64,000 nucleotides of DNA from Pseudovirgaria hyperparasitica (GCA_010093815.1 ML996567.1); one strand, 5' to 3'. Positions 14,942-59,900 are shown, counted from the first letter of the stretch. The notes: a model not told the origin generated them from the sequence alone. Translations and numbers: made by a program.

Positions 14942-17900
14942 CTATTCTATCAGGATTGATCGTTCCCTAGTGCGATCGATAGATGACCCAGGCATGTAAC
15001 CTGCACCAACTCTCCTATACACAGGTGACTGTGCATTGTTAGGTGATACAAGTAGGACGTAATGCTTCTTCTTTTCAAGAGCGCCCGTGCCCTTCTGAAT
15101 GCCCAATCACCATACACCATGGTTCCTGAGGCTCGATCGACTCTTGAGGACGATCAAATCTAAGCCACACTCCGTGAGTCTTGTTAAAACTGATAGGATG
15201 TATATATGTGGTAGCTCTTGCCTTCAGCATGTAGCGTGTGACTTGGGTGGCTGTTTAGGAAGAGACCCCGATGTTTTAGACCAAGGAGATTCAATATCTT
15301 GCCAGTCAATGCCATCGAACTCTAGGGTCAAGTAGTCAATGCTTCCAGTATATACGGATCTGTTCGACTGCCTAGGACCTCTAGTGTCGTTCTCGTCAAT
15401 ATAGGCCCTCACCATCCGTGTATTCTCTACTCAATATCCCAAAATCACCATTGTAGTCCATGGTCCGAAGAAGTCGGCGCTGCAAGCCGTCGATAGCGGT
15501 GGGACGATCAAATTTGTTGGAAAATTCGAGTGTTGAGAACGTCTTATAGAGTTCTTGGTATCTAAGAATGCGTTCTCCTTGGTCCGCTGGTGTTAGAATT
15601 CGGGGGAATCTTGGATCCCCAAGTAATGCTGCTTTATTACTATCCGTGTGTTTAGCACTCTGTAGTACCAACGTCTTCGTCTGACTTACATGCGAATTCT
15701 GGTCATAGTCTCGCATCGTACGCCCTCGCGACCCGCGAAGTAAGCTTGGTAGTCCGTGAAGAACAACGTTCGTCTTACAAGAGCATGTTCTTGAAGGACC
15801 CATCCACGGCGGTTCAATTCACCTTACAATACCTGCCTCTGGAACCCATCTATCATGTTGCAAATGAAGAAGGGAGACTCTAAATTCAGACCTAGACATT
15901 CAGCGTCCAGCTGTTTGCTTCTCTTCAGAAAACCTGAAAAAGTGGTTCGTTGCGTTGCTGGCGGCAATGACATAGTAGGCTGGCTCCGCTGTATATTTCC
16001 AACATGTGCCTTGTTTCTGTCTTTAAGTCCCCGCCTTCCCCTTGAACAATGCATAGAGAGTCGATCCACAAGTAGAGCTTCCTCAGAGCTTGCGTCAAAA
16101 TAACGGCATCACGAAACGTTGCGGCCATAGCTACCACCTCAATACCTTTCTTATGATCTCCTATTTCTTGAAGATAGACAATGGGGTCACCATCGGTGCC
16201 AACGCTAAGAAGCCTCTTAGGTATGGTCTTATCGGTGACTGCTTCTAGTTTCGAGCTAAGAATTTTCCATCACTATGATTTGTATCACAGTCATGAAGCC
16301 ATAGACTCAGCGTCTGGAAATGTCCTCGTGTCCCGACAGCCGGTAATCTTGGAATTCCGATTTGCACGTCTCTTGCTGCACTTGTCATGAGATCTGCATG
16401 GAAGTTTAGCAAGAGTCAAACATATGAAATCTATAGCAAGTAGCCTACCGAGGTGTCGAAACACAGATAGGGCAGGCGTATTTCCGCCGTTAATGACTAG
16501 ATGTGATCCTTTCCGAGTGAAGCGGACAGTGGCATCTTTGAGCCCCATTCGTTTGACATGCATCCCATAAAACACTGTAGAGTTTGCAGGGCCCCAACTC
16601 GGCTCTCAATTTGAGTTGATACACGGGATAGTTGATAACGTGACCCAGGCTCCAGATATTTTCTTGCACATCCATGCAATCCTGACAAAGGTGTGATGAA
16701 TCTATGTTAGAGTAGAGCAGTCTGAATAATTCCTCGTTCTCTCTCCACAGCAAGGATGTAACTTCATTGTCAGTAACATACTCCCATCCGTTGTCAAGTC
16801 TTGGATGAGCGTAGCTGACTTGTAGAGCAACAATAAGTAGCGGAATTCTCTGCAGCGGAGGAGAATTTTCACCAACGTCGCCAAAGAGAATGTGGATATC
16901 ATACCCTCCCTATGTTCAACGACTCGATTTTACTAACAGCACTTGACATTGCTTGCTCTTCGATAGGAACTGTAATGGGACTTGCACCACTGATAGCATC
17001 TTCGAACTGGTAGACGTCATTGTCAAGCTTAAGCTTGATAGTTTCTAGTGCCTCCAAGAATTTCTTAGCCTGATATCGATACTGAGGAAGCTCATCATAA
17101 TCGGACTCAGGATCTACTTTTGCCGCTTCCTCCATTGTATCCCTCACGGCAATCATAGGTGTGTCGTTGTGGCTTCGATCGTGGACAATTTGAGTTGATC
17201 TACCACCATTACCCGGCCCCACATGAATATTATTCCATATGGGGGACGTGCCACACTGTTCCGGAGTTCCATGCTCAAAGTTGTGATTTACAGAGGCAGT
17301 TCGATTTGGAACGCCCACAACTAGTATATGGTCTCTCACAAGTTGAAGCAGATCACCCAAAGCGGTCTTATTGACCAGACACCTTGGGTGCTTGGCCATC
17401 CTGTTCATTTCTTCCACAACACGTCTGTGGACAACTGCCTTCTTCCTATCCCCTAGCTTGGTAATTTCCAGTTCGTAGAATGGCTCTTCACGACCAGTAG
17501 AGCCACTTGTATATTGGTTGAACCTCGAGAGACCTTCGTAGCCATTCAACATCCAGCTGAGAAATTCAAGAATAATACAACCCATGGCCCAGATATCATA
17601 AAGTCTAGAGATGCGTTTCTCACTCTGGCCTTCAAAACCTGCTACTAATCCAGTCTCTGACTCTGGAGGTTCGTAGCGTTGAGTCCCGAACCGAGTTGAT
17701 GTATTATTTACCCTGATTGTAGTGTCAAGGGTATGCCCCTTTGCTATACCCCAATCGCCGATCTTGAGCGTACCAATATCGTTGATATCGTTGCTGGTTC
17801 GAAACCAAAGGATGTTTTCAGGTTTCAGATCCCCGTGACGATAGTGAGTACTGTCGCCATCACTATCCCTGTAGTGACATTTTCTAATTGCTCTTGTAAT

Positions 17901-18916
17901 TCCAATCAGCTGATCGAAGACCGTTCTGACAAACGTAACGTCAGGACGAGGCTTTACTACCTCCCATAGCTGGCGAAGACTACCACCGTCTGCCCACTCA
18001 AACATTAAGTAATACTCGTTTATTTGTTCATCTGCATAGCACCTACGGAAAGCGGCAATGAAGTGAACGATGTGTGAGCTGTCCCTCTCTTCTACATTGA
18101 CTAGATTCTCAGCCTCTGCCTCCCAAGCTTTGCGTAGCTCGGAAACTTTACCACCATTCCGTTTTCGAAATTCCTTGACCGCTACGGTCCTGGGCGTATA
18201 TTTTGAAGAGGGCTGCGAGTGCTGCGGTGATATTAGTGATATACACCACGAGCTCATCGGTACAATCTCACCTGGGAGCCAATGTCGTCGATATGAGCTC
18301 CATGGACATCGTAATGATATACCCACCCAAAGGAGCCTTCTGCAATTGAAGGAGCGCGTGACACGAATGGCAGAGGTGCGCACCATGGAACGTCGATGGT
18401 AGATTTCACATCGGACGAGAATGTGGGAGCAAGAAACATCCACTGGCGCTCTTCAAATGTGTCCAATGCCTGTTCCATATTGGATTTCCATATGCGCTTC
18501 TTGTATTTTTTAAAAAAATATTTCAAACTTGAATCCCTGGCAGAGGCTCCTACAGTTTCGTCCCTTATTAGGGGCAGCATGTGATCATTGATATTTGCTT
18601 TTTTGAACGACTCCATAGCGTTTTGTAGTATACTGCGGCCAAGATCGTTGTAGGACACGCTATAGACCACAATGGCAAACAGTCTTTTCGCGAACTTGAA
18701 AGTATAGTTGACGCTGGCGTCTGTTTCTTTCATAGCAGTAGCTTGAGCAATGGCCTCTTTAGTCAAGATCCGATTGATTGCATCGTTTGGAAGAAAGAAT
18801 CCAGATTCTGTCTTATGGAATTGGCTGCGCTTTTTTTCTTTCGATATGGCGCGTTCGATGGTATTGGGTTCTGTCGTATGTTCAGAGCCATCCGATTCCG
18901 TGTCTGAAGAAACCAT
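14942..18916 (-). pseudogene. Protein kinase-HET domain fusion gene; kinase half intact, HET half disrupted
   Basis: Kinase motifs EGSFGWV, VAVK, HGDLKPEN, DWG, YEPPE, YDIWAMG. After an intron near 16904: QIGIPRLP, WLHDCD..H, PKRLL, TFRDAV...LWIDSLCIVQ, LNRRGWVLQE, YRRVGAG, interrupted by frameshifts and a stop. Confidence 0.85.
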
Positions 18917-19567
18917 GTTGAGTAGTTGAGACAATAAGGCTCCAGCAAACCAAGAAAAAACAGTTTTGATAGTGCCTGCATTCAGGACTCTCGATCTTTC
19001 ATGATAGCGACTATTTGTGAAAATTTTCACTATTCTAGCTATGCATGGAATAGAATTGTCAAGATGCGGACGGTTCATTTTCGGTTGCAATTTCGCGGCA
19101 CCGTACTGTGTTTCACACGTGATAAGGCTAAAGCCTTGACACCGTATTCATGGCCTGTATCTGCCAAGTTGATGAGTCGTCACTACATGCATACTATCTG
19201 CAAGCCAGAGAGCTCGATAATGCGACCTCAGAGTTAGGGCACCCGACTGACCAACCAGGCTTTGAGATCGCACAAGACATAGCATCCTGAATGCCTGCCT
19301 TTTGTGGTTCAATAACTACCTGCAGAGTGTGACTACGCCCTCATCTAAACTGTACTCCTCGGGCACCAATTGCACTTTCGCAGCTCATATTGGCCCCGTG
19401 TTCCAAGCGGAGCCGCAATAGTGGTCCAAATCCACCTTCCTATTACCAAAACCTCACTTATTAAGTCTCTATTATCTAAATAATGTAGCTCTACGATATA
19501 GCTTTGATCTAAATACTAGTTATAAATAATAATTATAGTATTATAAAGCTAATATATCTAAGAAATA

Positions 19568-20124
19568 TCCGTCCGTAATTTTCTCAGCGTAACTCTTGGC
19601 ACGTGTCGTACGCGCAACACATCCATAAGTTTTTTTACCGATACCTCTAATTCTTAAAACCTATACCCTCCCTAATAACTCTAGCTTTAAGGCTCTAGAA
19701 GGTATTAGAAGATCTTATATACTTCTATTTATATCTTAGGAATATTTATTAAATTCTTTTAAAGACTAAAGGATCTTAAAGAGATAGATAGAAGAGAAAA
19801 TCTCTATTTTCTCTATAAGTTTACTATATACCTCGGTACTTTAGAAGTTACCCCTCCTATAACCCCTCCTATACTTAAGAACTAGAATTATAAATAGAGC
19901 TTTTCTTAGAATAACTAATTAATATATTATTATTCTTTCTTTATTTTTTTCTTAATATAGAAAGCAACAGACTATATAGAAGTATATATAGATATAACTA
20001 AGAAACTTCCTAGAGTCTTAATTCTAGAGTTATTAGAAAAAATATAAGTTTAAGAATAAGAGAAAATGTGTGTATTACGCGCGTAACACGTGCCAAGAGT
20101 TGCACTGAAAAGGTTACGGACGGA
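19568..20124. mobile_element. Non-autonomous Tc1/mariner-type element (MITE-like), RIP-degraded
   Basis: 59-bp imperfect terminal inverted repeats starting TCCGTCCGTAA (19568-19626, 20066-20124), TA on both flanks, very AT/TpA-rich interior, no transposase ORF. Confidence 0.85.
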
Positions 20125-20380
20125 TATATTTTAGTTATGTGAGTTACACGCGGAAACGTTTGTCGCCTTCTGATCCTAGGACTTGACATCGCGGTATGTC
20201 TAAGCACGTCTCATGCCTTCGCAGCCTCGCACAAGATACAGGAATTGCATCCACACTGGAAAGAATGTTACAGGCCCAATCTACCTGCCTCTCCGATCTG
20301 ACAAGTCGAATATCTATCAATGCCATCTCTTCAGTGTGAACCTTCGGCTCAGTAGAGCAACGAGGATCCACAATCCAAAA

Positions 20381-21995
20381 ATGAAAAGTTCCAATATCAT
20401 CAGTCTCCCGGACTCATCATCGAGTGACTTGAGCAATCGCTCAATGAATGATCCTAATGTCAGTCAATGTAGCCTGTATGATGTGCTGAGGAGAGTTGCT
20501 CTTCACGTTGAGTGTCCACAAGGAAACTACCAAAAGCAGTACATTCTACGTGGACACAAGATATATGAGATTACAACACCATCAGTCAGCTATCGTGGCT
20601 GAGATAGAAAATTCGATGCGCGAAGTGGGAAGATCATGCTCCCAGCTTTTCCGTAATTTCTTCTATAGCAACAGTATAGAGAGTACCGATTTCGTTGCAC
20701 ACAGCATATGTGGAAGCACGCCGTTTCCAGGCTCTTGTCGCTCAGAGCCCAAGTGTTATACGAAGGTGTTTGCTGTGCTAGTCCTAATGCAGCGGCCTGG
20801 GAGATTACGTCCTTTTTGAAGCGTGGAGTATCTGATGAGGATCTGCCGCTTGCCAATACCGATTCACCGAAAAGATGGAAGACGAAGTCTGGAGATTTGA
20901 CTGACGTATCTAAGGACTGAACCGAGAGGGCAGTATCGAGCTTCGAGCAAGAGCAGTGGAAAGTTGTGGTAAGCAACTTTTCGACCCTTTCACCGTTTGA
21001 ACCTAAGTACTCTCATGACGATGAGATCCTACCGTTTACAAGTGCAAGGCCGACTCACTTCAGCGGATCAAGTGATGTCCTCCGGGCTGTCATATGTCTG
21101 AGAACTCAGAACTTTGAAGTTCATTATGGAGTCAAAGATGAAACTGTAAGCAGCATGCTTCTGAAAGGGTTGAAAGACTTTTAACATCACTAGCAGGGTG
21201 ACGACATCTTTGCAGTCAAACGTCTACTCAAAGACACAAAAAATACTCACAGGTCCAAGAGTGCCTTTGAGTTTGAGTTGGGCATCTTGAAGAGGTTCAG
21301 TCAGGCAAGGCCTTCCCACGATCACATTGTAACATTTCTTGGAATTTTCGAGTATTGAAATGAATACTACCTAGTATTTCCTGAAGCCGATCTCGTCGAA
21401 TACTGGAAAAAATATGACCCAGAAAGCTTCAATTACAGTAACCTTAGAATCTAGCTCAGCGAGCAATTTTGTGGCCTTGCGCAGGCACTGAGTGGTGTTC
21501 ATAGGCACCAAACGGACTCAGGGAAGTCATTATTACACCCGGAGTCGTTCAGAAAGGTTACAAAGCAGTTTGAAATGTTACCGAATACGACCAATGTGGT
21601 GGATCTTCAAGGCTTTCTTCGAGTTCAGGAGGGATACCATCTCGCAGATGCGGCAAACCAGAGTGAAAGACACAGTCATCGACGTAAGTTACGCACATTT
21701 TACACTTCTTCCCTCGTAATATTTTTTGCACATCTAGCTTACAGTACCATAATAGCAAATCAGCCAACTCTTAACCAATTGTGAAACATCTTATGATACA
21801 CCTAAAACAAAAGAGGTTCTTAGCGGAATCCTCGAAATGGTCTTGAGAGAGGTGTTGATAGTAGAAACTGTGGGCAGTACGCAACTGGAAAAGAGACGTG
21901 CCAGTTCAAGACATATCGCTGAGATGCTAGAAGAGCTACTGACAGGCGTGTTAGACTGCTCAGCCTCGGATGGCGTTCCCATTAACCCATCCTAA
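20381..21995 (+). pseudogene. Degenerate protein kinase related to the neighbouring kinase-HET gene
   Basis: Fragments KVFAVLVLM, SDEDLPL, FEQEQW, ILPF, FAVKRL, FEFELGILKRFS, HIVTFL, YYLVFP, EQFCGLAQAL..VH, and late ILEMVLREVLIV..KRR. Stops at 21356 and 21452, frameshifts, no HGDxKPxN or DxG found. Confidence 0.75.
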
Positions 21996-22452
21996 TGACT
22001 ACAGAGGCACCAGTTTTGATGGTACAGAATTGGTCTCTACTTGTATAACAACATCCCTACCGCTCAACTGTTATCTATCGTTGACAAAGAGACGCAGGCG
22101 ACAGAGACTAATTGTCCAATTTGTACATTGGTGGTAGTACTTGCAGCGAATGAAATACTGCTTTTTGGTCAAGACTTGTGCAGCTGATACCGCTTACATA
22201 TACCTAGGTATGTGTCAAGTTAGATAAAAGATCTTTATACATTTATGATATCATGGAAAAGTTCATAATTAGTGCTCTACAGACGATCTATCTAACCCAG
22301 GTGAGATCCGGATCCCTGGATTAGTAAGTCCAGCTTCGGGCGCGAGGAGCGGGGAAACTTGCGAAGGCGGCGAAACAGAAGGATGACAGGTGACACGATA
22401 ACGTCGCATCTAGTGATCCATTTCATGATCTAACAGATTACGATATCAAACA

Positions 22453-30063: not shown

Positions 30064-30261
30064 CAGCCTAGAAGAATATGCGCACACTGTAGTTTTCCAT
30101 TTCTATACAACTCTTTCTCTGGTAAATCCATAGACCAAAGTGACCAATGGTTCGTCTTCACTTCAGCCCCCACAAAAAGCCGAGGTCTATATATATCGTC
30201 CCAGCTTTACAGGCCGCCACCCGAGAAGACCTTTGCCCACGATACATACAATCGATTTAAG

Positions 30262-32097
30262 ATGACACTTTATAGACCACTAGGTAGCTCCAAAGATGCG
30301 CTCCGTGAGTTCCGGCTCTTTAAGTTGAAGCATCGAAACCTACTCAATGAAATGTTCAATGAGACACGCATAAGTGGTACCCTCCAACACGCAGCCCCAG
30401 ACAATGCCCCATCGTACATCGCGCTGTCTTACGCTTGGGGTGAGGGGGAGCATATGGACATCGACGTTTCTGGTCGCAATATGTCGGTGGGCGTCAATCT
30501 ATACAATGCTTTATCTAGCATTCGGCAGGCGTCAGGTCATAGGGATGTCTTCGTCTGGGTCGATCAGATCTGTATTAACCAAAACGACCAAAGCGAGAGG
30601 GAGCACCAAGTACGGCATATGCGCGATATATACGCTCAAGCGACTTCAGTAATAGCTTGGGTAGGGCTTCCAATTGACGGTACTCAGCTACTTTTCGCGC
30701 ATCTGGAATCCATAGGTCTGGCTCACTTTAGGACTAGTGGTAACCGTACAACAGCAACGCCTGACTTAGTGGCATTCCAAGATGTAATTGAATCCTTAGA
30801 GGGTCAATCACACATCGTCCGCCGAGCTTTTGTTCATCTTGCTTCCTCTGTATACTGGACCAGAGTTTGGGTCATACAGGAGTTTGCCGTAGCTCGAGAT
30901 GTCATCGTAGCCTGCGGAACCTACCGGTTATCGGGAGATATCCTTTCTGATTCCTTGGCTGAGATTGGATCAACCAAGAATGAGCTGAAAGGTAATGGCA
31001 GTCTGGCAGATCAGAAAAATATAGACCTTATCACTAGGAGCTATACCCATGCGGCTGAAAGCTTCATGCAGGGTGTCTGTTCGCTGCGCCAACGCTATAT
31101 GTACATGTCGACTCCACGCAGCCTCTTTAGTGTACTTTCGACATCATCCCTGTTGGAAGAAGATTACAACCATCTGTCTTGTTCCAACCCACGAGATCGT
31201 ATATTTGCATTGCTTGGGCTTGTAGCAGACTCGGATGAGTTCCACTTCTTCCCAGATTATTCCTCGACCTGCGAGAAAGTTTATACACTACTTGCCGAAA
31301 GGTTCCTGCAGCAGGGAAGAATCAATATGCTCGCGTTATGCCGTGCTCCTCGCCCTAGCAATCTTCCGTCCTGGGTACCAGATTGGCAGAGCCCAACCTT
31401 TTGGCCTTGGACGAATGATCCACCGTTCGATGACAATATATATGGCAGCCTATCAGGACCTCCTATTGAAGGATTGAAGGTCGATAACCAGTGCGGGCAC
31501 CTCACGCTGCAATGTATCCTGGTCGACAGAATCAAGACAACTAAAGGCTTGTGGGCGCCCGATTGGTTGTCTCGAGTCCATCCTCGTCAAGGCCTGGAAT
31601 ACCTCAATGGCATTAGATCACTTTGTCGAGACTCGCCACGGATCAAAGATGATGCTGTTGAGAAACATTCTTCTCAGATCGCGATAGCATATCGTTGTAT
31701 CGAGCATTCTAGAGAAAAGGTTCTAGAGGCTTATCAGACAATTCTGCAGACGTGGAAAGTCCAGCATATGCCAACGAAGCCACCTTCAGATGAAGTATCC
31801 TGGTACGTGCGTGTAATGACACGACTCCGCCCATGCCGACCAACGCTTTCTGTAAGCGGGTTTGTGGGGCTTGCACCCGAGGATGTTCTAGAAGGGGATC
31901 AGGTCTGCCTCATCTCCGGTGCAAGTACACCATACATTGTTCGCCAAGAGAATGATGGACTGTATACCCTTATCGGTGAGACCTACGTTGATGGCTTGAT
32001 GTACCACGATAATTATGGTGGCTATTTGCACCGTGTTGATAAGTACGGTGGCATTCTCAGAGAGAGTGATAAACGTCAAACGATCACTTTGAAGTGA
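30262..32097 (+). CDS. HET-domain protein (HET-6-like heterokaryon incompatibility family)
   Basis: YIALSYAWG, WVDQICINQ, QV..MRDIY..A..V..W.G, YWTRVWVIQE, RDRIFALLGL, LPSWVPDW, LIGETYVDGLM. Confidence 0.95.
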   Translation: MTLYRPLGSSKDALREFRLFKLKHRNLLNEMFNETRISGTLQHAAPDNAPSYIALSYAWGEGEHMDIDVSGRNMSVGVNLYNALSSIRQASGHRDVFVWVDQICINQNDQSEREHQVRHMRDIYAQATSVIAWVGLPIDGTQLLFAHLESIGLAHFRTSGNRTTATPDLVAFQDVIESLEGQSHIVRRAFVHLASSVYWTRVWVIQEFAVARDVIVACGTYRLSGDILSDSLAEIGSTKNELKGNGSLADQKNIDLITRSYTHAAESFMQGVCSLRQRYMYMSTPRSLFSVLSTSSLLEEDYNHLSCSNPRDRIFALLGLVADSDEFHFFPDYSSTCEKVYTLLAERFLQQGRINMLALCRAPRPSNLPSWVPDWQSPTFWPWTNDPPFDDNIYGSLSGPPIEGLKVDNQCGHLTLQCILVDRIKTTKGLWAPDWLSRVHPRQGLEYLNGIRSLCRDSPRIKDDAVEKHSSQIAIAYRCIEHSREKVLEAYQTILQTWKVQHMPTKPPSDEVSWYVRVMTRLRPCRPTLSVSGFVGLAPEDVLEGDQVCLISGASTPYIVRQENDGLYTLIGETYVDGLMYHDNYGGYLHRVDKYGGILRESDKRQTITLK

Positions 32098-56922: not shown

Positions 56923-59900
56923 TCAATCGTGATCATCAGCGATCTTCTCGGGTCCATCATCGTCGGCTTGTAGCTGTTCTTCCTCCGCTTCCTCGAATAC
57001 CTCATCATCGATGTCCTCCACATCTTCATCTCCTTCGTCGGGATGACCTTCATCGGCAGTCACTGCCTCTGGACTAGCTACGCTACTAGCCCCTGTATCA
57101 TCAGCAGCAAGGTGGTCCTTTCGGAACAGATTGGGAAACATGGACTTCGGTGGACGGGGTTCGGTGTCGTCGTCCTCGTCGTCCTCGTCATCATCGTCCT
57201 CCAATTGCGTGAGCTCGCTTTCATCATCTGCACTATCATGTACACTACCAGGTGCACTGACCTCGGCACCTTCATCATCACGATCTGGGGCAGACAAAGT
57301 ATTGTCACCACTAGGCCCAAATGACTTTCGCCTATCGTGAACAGGCGAACGGATAACGACTTCGACGGTATGATCGCCCTGTGGGAGGACAGGAGTCTTG
57401 GCAGCTGTCTGAAGGGTAGTTAATCTGGCAACAGCTGCCTCGGCGCGGCGCGCAATCTCTCGGCGATTCACAGCCTTGAAGCGCGGACGAGCCAATACAG
57501 GTTCTGTTGTGACAGTGGATGAAGCCGCAGCATTCATCACGACTCCAACACCCCCTATAGTAGCCTTGTCCGAATTAGCCATATTCATGAGGGAGGTCAA
57601 CGACATCATATTGGTTCTCTCTGGCGCTTGACCTCCAGAGAAAGGGGTTGCAGTAGCATTCAGAGGAAGGCTAGGCGTCTCTGAAGGCAGTGGTGGTAAT
57701 GTCAGGGCGATATCTGCATATAGCACGGCATATGCATCTCCGACAGTATCATCTATCAGCGCGTATTTAGCGAGGCCACTGTTCAGCTTCTTGAATTCAA
57801 CGGCCTCTCTGAGAACTTCGATTACGGGCATAGAACTGTCCGCGGTCAAAAGCCATTGTTCGAGCCGGTCTGCCTTGACTGCGAACTCTTCGCTACTGAG
57901 TGATTTGAAAATGATGTCTTCGTGACCTTCCGGAACTTTCGCATGACGCCGAAGTAGCTTTATGTACTCCACACAAATCTTATACCAAAGTTTGGAGTGC
58001 TCAAAGAAGTCATGAGGCCGCTTCCGAACTCTTTTCGCTAAAGCTTCAAGACTACTGCGTTCGTTAAGTTGGACGAGCAGTTGTAGAAAGAAGTCTGTGT
58101 AGAGAGTGGTGTAAACAAAATGCCGGCCAGGTCTTTCATTCTCAGGTTTCCATACTTGGACTGCCATTGTTTTTGTGAAGATCTGCTGCGTCAACTCATG
58201 CTTAGCACCCATGGCCGCCATGATACTAGATTTGTCGTCATCGTATACAACGTGCGCCGCTCTTGCCGTCATGCGATGATGCCAGCCAGACTTGTCAGCG
58301 CTTCGCAGTTGCTTAAGAATTTGGAGCACATATGACTGCCAGTCATCCAAGTCCTGGGACTTTCCGAGTGTCCGCGCATATCGAGTGGACTGCAAGGCCT
58401 CACAAGCACTTTCGTGACCCAAACTCTTATCATGGACCAACTTGTTGATGATTGAAACAAGCTTGTAATGAGGCTCAAGAACTGGCTCGCGTTTAGAGTC
58501 TTTCTTCCCCGGCAACCGATCAATAGCATTGACAAATGCATTTACAATTTGTTCGATGGTTGGGGCATTGTCGATATGGTTGCGTGTGGTGCAGTTATAC
58601 ATCTTCCATAGACACTTGCCAAGCATAAAATGGTCCATCCAGCGATCAGGATTGCCGCGTATTGCACGAATAAACAGTGTCTTCGAGAATTTCCATAAAG
58701 TGAATTCTTTAAAACTTTCATATGGCGCCTCTTGCTGGACGACGTTGCGGCTAAGAAATCGTGTTTCGGATTCACGAAAGTCGAACGCTTTCGAGCTGTA
58801 GGGGGGACGAGAAGAAGAGTACATTCGCATGCCGAAGTCTGCGTACATCTCGGCCATCGTGGTCTTATCTTCTTCTGTGATGTCGACTTGCCTGTTTGCG
58901 CAAGCAACTGCCATAGTGTAGCAATGCACTGCATTTCTTTGTAGTTGTATAATATCGTATTGGTCCCCATTTAATTTTTCGGCTGACCACGAAACACTTT
59001 CTTCCAGCTGTGTATCATATGTTTGAGCAAGACGATACCAGGTTTCCCAGCGCTCGATAGAGTATTCTAGATCTTGCATGAAGAATGCAGCAGCAAAGTT
59101 TATTTCTTCGGTCGGACCTTGAGCAATTCGTTTCTGAGACCGGAACTTGTTTAATGCAATATTGCCCATGAGGAAATACCAGCCCTTAGAAGCAGCGATG
59201 GCACGGTTTGGGGATATATGTTTCGTCGACAAGGCCCCAACTCCATGCAGGCATCGGAAGCAATTCAGAGGGTTGATAGGAGATTTCAGATAGGAAGTTA
59301 TGACCTTTCTGTTCATCATCATATCACCGTTCGCTTTCGGACGCCCAAGCGCGCCATGAAGCTTGTCGATCGCTGCTTTGTGTTCTGTTTTGGGTAGGTC
59401 TTTGACACTGATTTTATGTGCTTGTGCCATCACAAATGGTAACAACTGTGTGGCAGTCTTCGCATCCAGTGGCTCTTCCGGAGAGCCGTACTCCATGGAG
59501 TCCTCAGCTTTCGTAAAGCACTTGAGTCCATAAATATCATAGAGCGTCTGGCAAAGCTCGGCATCTCTAGCCTTTTTATCGCTAACATCGTTGAGATGAA
59601 CAAGCTCATCTTTCAGCAGCTTTAGGAAGACTTTGTTGGCCATATGCCCATATTGGCGCAGCCCCATCGCATAGTGTATGTGTCGCAGAAAGTCTAAGCG
59701 ATCATCATCTGCTGTAGGGTACTTGTCGGGATTCTGCTTCATGCCTTCTTTGAGGAGCAAGTATTGTAGTGTCCATGCTCGAACATGCATGTCTTTAATC
59801 CTTGCACTGATCATGTTATAATCCGCGTTTCCTCGTCCTTGTGTCGTGGATACTGGTACTTGGCCGACGCGGATACGATCTTCATAGACGTCAGAAACAG

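Follow-up and report, generated by a model that had tools for sequence, protein, structure and literature searches.

The closest described counterparts of the gene pair considered here, which lies in a 64-kb window of Pseudovirgaria hyperparasitica (the whole stretch of DNA that was analyzed, from its sequence), come from allorecognition and immunity. In the window, a gene on the minus strand is a relative of a family of fungal proteins that join a protein kinase to a HET domain (kinase-HET proteins), and a gene on the plus strand is a partner-class kinase. Neurospora het-c/pin-c is reportedly a linked two-gene HET allorecognition locus. Plant NLR head-to-head pairs act as sensor and executor, and plant tandem kinase resistance proteins bring paired kinase domains into immunity. 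These plant pairs belong to families unrelated to the fungal one, in which orientation is variable (6 divergent and 5 tandem among metagenome loci) and the two kinases sit on separate genes. At other linked HET loci (het-6/un-24 of Neurospora, het-B of Podospora), published descriptions give a HET gene tightly linked to a non-allelically interacting partner, with HET as the death-inducing part. Unlike these loci, the fungal pair described here has its HET domain behind a kinase and a partner that is paralogous to the kinase half; it is known from sequence alone, and the copy in the window is dead.

Two further systems share parts of the design. RIPK3-MLKL, as a review describes it, has one kinase acting upon a second, kinase-like domain to which a death executioner is joined, the same logic that we propose below. 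Its executioner is a four-helix bundle rather than a HET/TIR-like domain, MLKL is a pseudokinase whereas catalytic residues are kept in both fungal classes, the two mammalian genes are neither neighbors nor close paralogs, and homology is shown only at the kinase fold. In fungal NLRs (HNWD family), HET and Pkinase are both listed as N-terminal effector domains in Dyrka et al. (2014). Unlike those proteins, the family described here has Pkinase and HET fused to each other with no NOD module, and no NACHT/NB-ARC by Pfam. The HET domain itself is regarded as TIR-like, with overexpression sufficient to kill, in a review; HET-E, HET-D, and HET-R carry HET, and two HET entries read "ND" in a 2025 review table. 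A literature search, with subscription journals and supplements outside its scope, returned no description of a kinase-HET fusion or of its partner. An earlier reading of this DNA (the sequence-only reading) knew of no characterized system with this layout. We consider it probable (roughly 0.85) that this locus preserves, as a fossil, a two-gene module that filamentous ascomycetes conserve and that was inactivated in P. hyperparasitica. The anatomy of the locus, its decay, the family membership of both genes, their recurrent linkage, and their co-divergence are observed; the mechanism proposed below is inferred.

Both genes of the window share a pre-kinase domain of ~200 residues, here called the N-extension. 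The sequence-only reading had quoted motifs from it in two divergent genes about 1.5 kb apart, within a span of 14942-21995, and this description holds. KRLFAIVV, DHMLPL, FEERQW, and PLPF lie in minus-strand exon 1 (18916-18272), and KVFAVLVL, DEDLPL, FEQEQW, and ILPF lie on the plus strand at 20760-21040. The likely start codons, at 18916 and about 20382, are ~1.47 kb apart, the transcript ends are at 19039 (minus gene) and 20158 (plus gene), and the span matches the extent of both genes. The four motif pairs are conserved columns of the N-extension, with the consensus ..AKK.FAI.., ..F.D..LPI.., F...QW.FLAPVFS, and ILPF. A family profile built from 163 matched stretches of database homologs found two sites only in a six-frame translation of the window, 18913-18275 (E = 7.8e-77) and 20777-21070 (E = 6.5e-12); the third-best match had an E value of 6. 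An AlphaFold model of the N-extension (exon 1; pLDDT 84.5, pTM 0.81) is a helical bundle leading into the first kinase strands. With this model, Foldseek gave zero matches at E ≤ 1e-3 and VIA-align gave a best Z of 4.3, none reaching 5; a SAM-like fold, which appeared in a few rows at Z 3.1-4.2, was too weak for use. No Pfam family covers the N-extension, and a word-based protein search with it for longer proteins returned the self match only. On family members and window fragments, Pfam found just Pkinase, PK_Tyr_Ser-Thr, and HET, with no NACHT/NB-ARC or repeat domain.

Transcript evidence comes from X3 and X4, runs of another sample and study whose kind is unrecorded. They were taken as RNA-derived because their contigs skip four GT..AG introns that the DNA runs X1 and X2 retain. 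The minus gene reads as follows.

18272..18916, minus strand: exon 1, start codon plus the ~200-residue N-extension up to the kinase glycine loop, 215 aa, P0001 (translation; family profile E 7.8e-77)
18222..18271, minus strand: intron 1, 50 nt, GT..AG, at the family's conserved N-extension/kinase boundary (skipped in spliced X3 and X4 contigs)
16899..18221, minus strand: exon 2, protein kinase domain (VAVK, HGD, DWG, PPE) plus linker, ending in TGA at 16901-16899 (Pfam Pkinase E 5.8e-20; motifs)
16263..16810, minus strand: pre-HET linker remnant in two frames, with a frameshift near 16572-16532, containing a spliced 55-nt intron at 16394-16448 (LINK profile)
15423..16173, minus strand: HET remnant in frames 2, then (3), then 1, with an in-frame stop at 15826-15824, containing a spliced 50-nt intron at 15640-15689 (Pfam HET; HETR profile; tblastn of nine proteins)
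14963..15352, minus strand: C-terminal domain remnant, out of frame with the HET remnant, with 2 stops (CTER profile E 6.5e-24, frame 2)

The open reading frame of this gene is limited to its first 655 codons. Exon 1 (215 aa) is 100% identical to the first 215 residues of P0003, a 655-aa NCBI "kinase-like protein" of P. hyperparasitica, and the public annotation likewise stops the protein at 655 aa. Within that frame the kinase passes Pfam PF00069 (72.2 bits versus a cutoff of 31.7) and keeps all of the catalytic motifs VAVK, HGD, DWG, and PPE. Across the N-extension and kinase, 71 of the 76 columns that are invariant in ten intact proteins are retained, and the five changes are conservative. 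Beyond the stop, nine intact kinase-HET proteins align in order along 18913 to about 14948 (tblastn). The sequence-only reading of one gene as fused to a HET domain is thus only partly right: kinase-HET proteins are collinear with the DNA over this whole stretch, but the frame closes at the 16901-16899 stop, and the HET half lies in other frames. Region profiles (including LINK, HETR, and CTER) cut from an alignment of the ten intact proteins place the N-extension and kinase intact in frame 1, and along the RNA-supported mRNA the homology passes through frames 1, 2, 3, 2, 1, and 2. The HET half, 3′ of the stop in the same spliced transcript, carries at least four frameshifts, three stops, and one deletion; the first frame change (1 to 2) could reflect a retained intron, and the other four cannot.

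In the mRNA, frame 2 holds LINK positions 1-94 (E = 3.5e-17) and frame 3 holds positions 82-166 (E = 2.8e-21). Missing are ~25 positions at the end of the linker and the initial ~31 of the HET-region profile, the latter corresponding to Pfam HET positions 1-17. Pfam HET (PF06985) matched one fragment (E = 1.2e-12) at positions 18-88 of 146 only, and HETR matched in pieces (32-99, 94-117, and 103-265) in three frames with one stop. The HET domain of the window is a remnant: there is no complete domain in an open frame, and it cannot be made. Positions 40-91 of CTER fit the alternative frame 1 better than frame 2. All 11 intact homologs in which both regions are present read from HET into the C-terminal region in a single frame, uninterrupted by stops or an intron. 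The three spliced introns of the minus gene occupy family-typical positions; at that of intron 1, 13 of the 14 kinase-HET loci from metagenomes (see below) have a gap of 58-168 nt with stops, and the remaining one, L048, has none. Judged by these alignments, the minus gene is a full-length relative of the N-extension, kinase, and HET family whose coding sequence is no longer continuous. A single 3,886-nt X3 contig spans 14999-19039 with introns 18222-18271, 16394-16448, and 15640-15689 spliced out. It is unbroken over 16449-18221, and the post-kinase stop is therefore part of the mRNA. A guessed intron at 16904-16850, which would join the kinase to the linker, is unspliced in this contig and was rejected.

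The plus gene extends from about 20380 to 21995, in pieces that are spread over frames and interrupted by stops.

20694..21544, plus strand: partner-class N-extension and kinase N-lobe, pseudogene (partner-class profile)
21684..21755, plus strand: spliced 72-nt intron, GT..AG, in the 3′ part of the gene (joint in an X3 contig)
20158..21995, plus strand: extent of the transcript pieces plus the last open frame, which ends at 21995 (RNA-like contigs 20158-20671, 20713-20975, and 21564-22100; list of open reading frames)

A partner-class profile matched positions 84-306 of 459 in one frame at 20798-21544 (E = 8.5e-34), and the gene scored 104.6 bits on this profile versus 61.4 bits on the kinase-HET-class profile. 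Five stops fall in 20798-21544, two of them within the likely N-extension/kinase intron; the in-frame stops are at 20918-20920, 21356-21358, and 21452-21454. Profile positions 53-103 lie in another frame (20694-20870), so that a frameshift must be placed between 20798 and 20870. Positions 307-459, from the catalytic loop onward, were not detectable with the partner profile, and no fragment had a Pfam match, the N-lobe being matched by the class profile only. RNA-like contigs cover 20158-20671, 20713-20975, 21273-21438, and 21564-22100, with the 72-nt intron at 21684-21755 spliced out, and the transcript reading is confined to these parts. The frameshift and the stops at 20918-20920 and 21356-21358 sit inside the unspliced contigs 20713-20975 and 21273-21438, without differences. 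The plus gene is a transcribed pseudogene of a partner-class kinase.

Single-base indels are a common assembly artifact, and the frameshifts and stops might on that account be assembly or sequencing errors in two intact genes. We find this barely credible: no run reported any base difference or indel against the window at covered bases, the X3 and X4 contigs agree with it at every one of those bases, and in the public annotation, too, the protein is 655 aa long. With agreement from contigs of a second sample and study, the frame breaks can be taken as real.

The sequence-only reading had gone further: in its proposal, the module works in this genome, in immunity or allorecognition, and the kinase on the plus strand controls a kinase-HET executor. 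Both genes are indeed transcribed and spliced, other fungi conserve the family layout, and the kinase of the minus gene still has its catalytic motifs along with 71 of 76 invariant columns. Such a pair can nevertheless hardly operate here, since the HET half is destroyed (at least four frame changes, three stops, and a deletion) behind a stop at 16901-16899 that the transcript contig keeps, and the partner has three in-frame stops (two of them in RNA-like contigs), a frameshift, and no detectable catalytic half, including the catalytic loop. That proposal, highly improbable for P. hyperparasitica itself, fails for this copy of the pair.

Elsewhere the two protein families are numerous. An HMMER search with the N-extension matched 316 representative proteins at E ≤ 1e-3, and 30 long proteins from the best 150 of these were run through Pfam. 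Among 11 representatives of 1246-1327 aa, nine carry Pkinase and HET, and in the remaining two the N-extension and kinase lie in the second half of the protein. Kinase-HET proteins measure ~1,250-1,330 aa (for example, P0084, P0018, and P0035) and run from N-extension through kinase, linker, and HET to a C-terminal domain over ~1,300 aa; the named members belong to Dothideomycetes and Sordariomycetes and are all annotated as hypothetical. A profile of ten kinase-HET proteins matched 284 proteins at E ≤ 1e-30, including Leotiomycetes and the lichen-forming Pyrenula, and all of the best 120 of the 284 carry Pkinase and HET. The partner profile (alignment A2) matched 359 proteins at E ≤ 1e-10; each of the best 120 of the 359 scores ~2× higher on the partner-class than on the main-class (kinase-HET) profile, and none carries HET. 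Three proteins, P0051 (891 aa), P0075 (1276 aa), and P0151 (1327 aa), have the N-extension two or three times or in the second half behind a kinase-like region, and may be merged gene models of neighboring family members.

Both classes keep the β3 Lys, the αC Glu, and the HGD and APE-like motifs, with DFG in the partner and DWG/DMG in the main class. HGD has Gly in place of the usual Arg, hence the term "non-RD" kinases. Going by these motifs, the kinases of both classes should be active. Non-RD kinases are linked to innate immunity.

To locate the pair in other genomes, a degenerate DNA pattern for F...QW.FLAPVF was used, which recovered 54 metagenome loci that were scanned in six frames with the class profiles; Pfam bore out the assignments for five partner frames (Pkinase) and three main-gene frames (HET). 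A kinase-HET gene is present in 14 of the loci, eight of which have at least 5 kb of 5′ flank, and in all eight a partner-class gene lies 1.3-2.9 kb away (five divergent, two tandem upstream, and one tandem downstream). The other six have a 5′ flank of at most 1.3 kb in which no partner was seen, and are uninformative. Three more loci (L007, L013, and L032) have the pair with the main gene cut by the contig end, giving 11 paired loci. The head-to-head layout emphasized in the sequence-only reading does recur in six of these, but it is not essential, the remaining five being tandem. Partner domain hits in the 11 loci contain no stops, except for one stop in L032. Four HET-less genes of the main clade with long flanks (L019/L051, L023, and L050) have no partner. 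With a partner in eight of eight informative kinase-HET loci and none beside these four, the partner is therefore tied to the HET-bearing form.

In loci of the divergent type we also observed a conserved short open-frame piece (..QDV.IR..DPEKL..KL...FG..YEV.V), ~1-1.4 kb upstream of the kinase-HET gene and on the same strand.

L049, 8158-8271, plus strand: open-frame piece
L048, 3463-3576, minus strand: open-frame piece
L008, 6355-6468, minus strand: open-frame piece
L032, 8358-8474, plus strand: open-frame piece
L003, 5088-5204, plus strand: open-frame piece
L047, 7304-7420, plus strand: open-frame piece
L016, 2045-2161, minus strand: open-frame piece

The matches have E values of 8e-21 to 1e-19, and L016 was left out of profile building. 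Searches of the intergenic regions with tblastx and blastp returned only this short conserved piece, in divergent lineages only. It matches no Pfam family, has a best atlas score of 0.82, and was not found in the window. It may be a third small gene of the module.

Named genomes tell the same story of linkage. Comparing the best 120 proteins of each class, we found at least 23 species with a partner and a kinase-HET protein on contigs identical in size. Identifier order generally mirrors gene order in genome submissions. GenBank accessions are consecutive in Xylariales sp. PMI_506, Didymella keratinophila, Macroventuria anomochaeta, and Thermothielavioides terrestris NRRL 8126, and two apart in Aaosphaeria arxii, Nemania sp. 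FL0031, Lentithecium fluviatile, Lophium mytilinum, Bipolaris oryzae, Podospora australis, and T. terrestris (SPQ record); all 10 species pairs checked by accession, preselected for contigs equal in size, were consecutive or two apart. Locus tags are consecutive in Lasiodiplodia mahajangana, Cosmosporella sp., and Cytospora schulzeri and two apart in Mollisiaceae sp., Plenodomus biglobosus, and Astrocystis sublimbata. This makes 16 named species in all (10 by accession and 6 by locus tag), and in 10 of the 16 the identifiers are exactly two apart, which implies one annotated coding sequence between the pair. Homologs of the two genes, whose recurrence as neighbors the sequence-only reading had set as a check, are thus linked in eight of eight informative metagenome loci and in 16 named species.

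The phylogeny places the two genes of the window in different classes. In an 80-sequence tree of the N-extension and kinase, the plus gene groups with 10 of 11 partner genes (SH-aLRT 95), a clade that L044, the eleventh, joins at 90, and all kinase-HET genes stand with the minus gene on the opposite side (97); the corresponding supports in a 33-row tree are 96 and 99. Forcing the genes of the window together costs 26.1 log-likelihood units. The main gene and its own partner are 24-27% identical in all ten loci compared, and the pair in the window is 24.4% identical; with the same range in every locus, the low identity in the window is therefore the normal distance between classes and not a product of decay. 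The second gene is accordingly no recent local duplicate of the first, a possibility that the sequence-only reading had raised, given the 24% identity and the separate partner clade. Pairwise identities among mains and among partners are correlated (Spearman 0.73, with 1 of 5,000 permutations as high; 0.74 and 0 of 5,000 without L003). On these trees and distances, kinase-HET and partner are two separate old clades that co-diverge.

Pairing might still lack functional meaning, with ancient tandem duplicates remaining neighbors by inertia and the window holding merely two decaying paralogs. The genes of the window are indeed paralogs, fungal gene families are often clustered, and HET-less main-clade genes stand alone in L019/L051, L023, and L050. 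This account is unlikely, though less so than the two rejected above: adjacency has been kept at ~25% paralog identity, in Dothideomycetes, Sordariomycetes, and Leotiomycetes alike and despite changes of orientation, and the partner is present at eight of eight informative kinase-HET loci and at none of the four HET-less main-clade genes checked over long flanks.

Several points count against the fossil-module explanation. The metagenome loci are not all independent, since L003 does not differ from L047 and both share 77% identity with L008; the remaining partners are <60% identical to one another. Adjacency in the named genomes is read from identifier order and equal contig size rather than coordinates, and the species were picked because both proteins appeared among the best 120 of each profile search. 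Fusarium decemcellulare, Xylaria curta, Seiridium cardinale, Cercophora samala, and Rhypophila decipiens have both proteins and were unmatched by contig, and the kinase-HET proteins P0018, P0009, and P0113 have no partner among the best 120 of the 359 partner matches. The tree searches were "quick" ones, and the plus gene, which fills 42-43% of the columns, sits on a long branch (1.94-2.25); the P value of the approximately unbiased test against sisterhood of the plus and minus genes (0.044) is marginal, and the group was named after inspection of the tree. Correlated distances would also arise if both genes tracked species history, and a rare isoform spliced over 16904-16850 may exist.

A different emphasis, compatible with the fossil-module explanation and refining it, is that the minus gene was remodeled rather than lost, its N-extension and kinase forming a protein that functions alone, with the partner and the HET parts as debris. 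We regard this as a serious possibility, somewhat short of an even chance. The 655-aa frame is open and transcribed, with all catalytic motifs, 71 of 76 invariant columns, and five conservative changes, and HET-less main-clade genes exist elsewhere (L019/L051, L023, and L050); against this reading, the long branch of the minus gene (1.17 versus a median of 0.5 in the 80-sequence tree) also fits relaxed constraint. HET-less, partnerless main-clade genes were observed in several lineages, namely, those three and the window at 16899-18916 (HET lost), and loss of HET with retention of the N-extension and kinase looks like a repeated fate of the family.

Between the two genes of the window lies a further element.

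19549..20143, no strand: AT-rich element of ~0.6 kb with 107-nt imperfect inverted ends (inverted repeats; DNA depth)

Its composition (GC 0.30, TpA/ApT 1.50, (CpA+TpG)/(ApC+GpT) 0.36) resembles that left by repeat-induced point mutation (RIP). DNA depth within it is up to ~8× that of its neighbors and contigs break inside it, which together mark it as a dispersed multi-copy repeat inserted between the genes. RIP was considered as the cause of decay and rejected; the two decayed genes do not differ in their RIP indices from the background of the window, and the intergenic element alone is RIP-like. Some 8 kb from the plus gene, at 30064-32097 on the plus strand, a 677-codon open frame encodes HET over its full length (Pfam E = 1.2e-28, positions 1-146 of 146) with no kinase; this second HET gene appears to be intact. 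An open frame of 1,766 codons at 56923-62223 on the minus strand went unmatched in Pfam at E ≤ 1e-5.

Returning to the fossil module, we can outline how it may have been built and lost. The ancestor of the minus gene (gene A) would have encoded the helical N-extension, a non-RD (HGD) kinase, a linker, a TIR-like HET domain, and the C-terminal domain, and that of the plus gene (gene B) would have been an old paralog with the N-extension and kinase only. Elsewhere, both genes are intact, adjacent, and co-diverging, in divergent or tandem order. In P. hyperparasitica, gene A persists as an open, transcribed, well-conserved 655-codon frame of N-extension and kinase with its broken HET half as the 3′ tail of the same mRNA, and gene B as a transcribed pseudogene. 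The module would thus have been discarded here, the HET half and the partner decaying together, with perhaps a stand-alone kinase left behind.

In intact pairs, the two kinases might act on each other and so decide whether HET kills the cell, in line with the phosphorylation-gated death switch that the sequence-only reading conjectured. Linkage outlives changes of orientation, and co-inheritance of matched alleles is therefore a likelier reason for it than a shared promoter, as in linked het or guard/antidote pairs. We tentatively suggest, as a possibility that falls clearly below even odds, that intact pairs form a widespread death switch in which paralogous non-RD kinases read each other and release the TIR-like HET domain when their pairing is disturbed. 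Mutual reading could proceed through hetero-association of the shared N-extensions or kinase domains together with trans-phosphorylation. Such a disturbance might come from a non-self allele met upon hyphal fusion or from a kinase-targeting pathogen effector, and the third small gene between the pair may take part in some lineages.

For the annotation of P. hyperparasitica, the 655-aa "kinase-like protein" is the stump of a kinase-HET gene and its neighbor is a pseudogene. The value of this fossil copy is that it exposes a conserved and apparently undescribed pair, whose kinase-HET member is present in at least 284 protein clusters from several ascomycete classes. For the switching-on of HET, this family offers a natural, compact, and very widespread candidate regulator, with one kinase in cis and a co-inherited paralogous kinase in trans. 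If that role is true, it would give fungal cell death one more connection to the death pathways that kinases drive in animals and plants.

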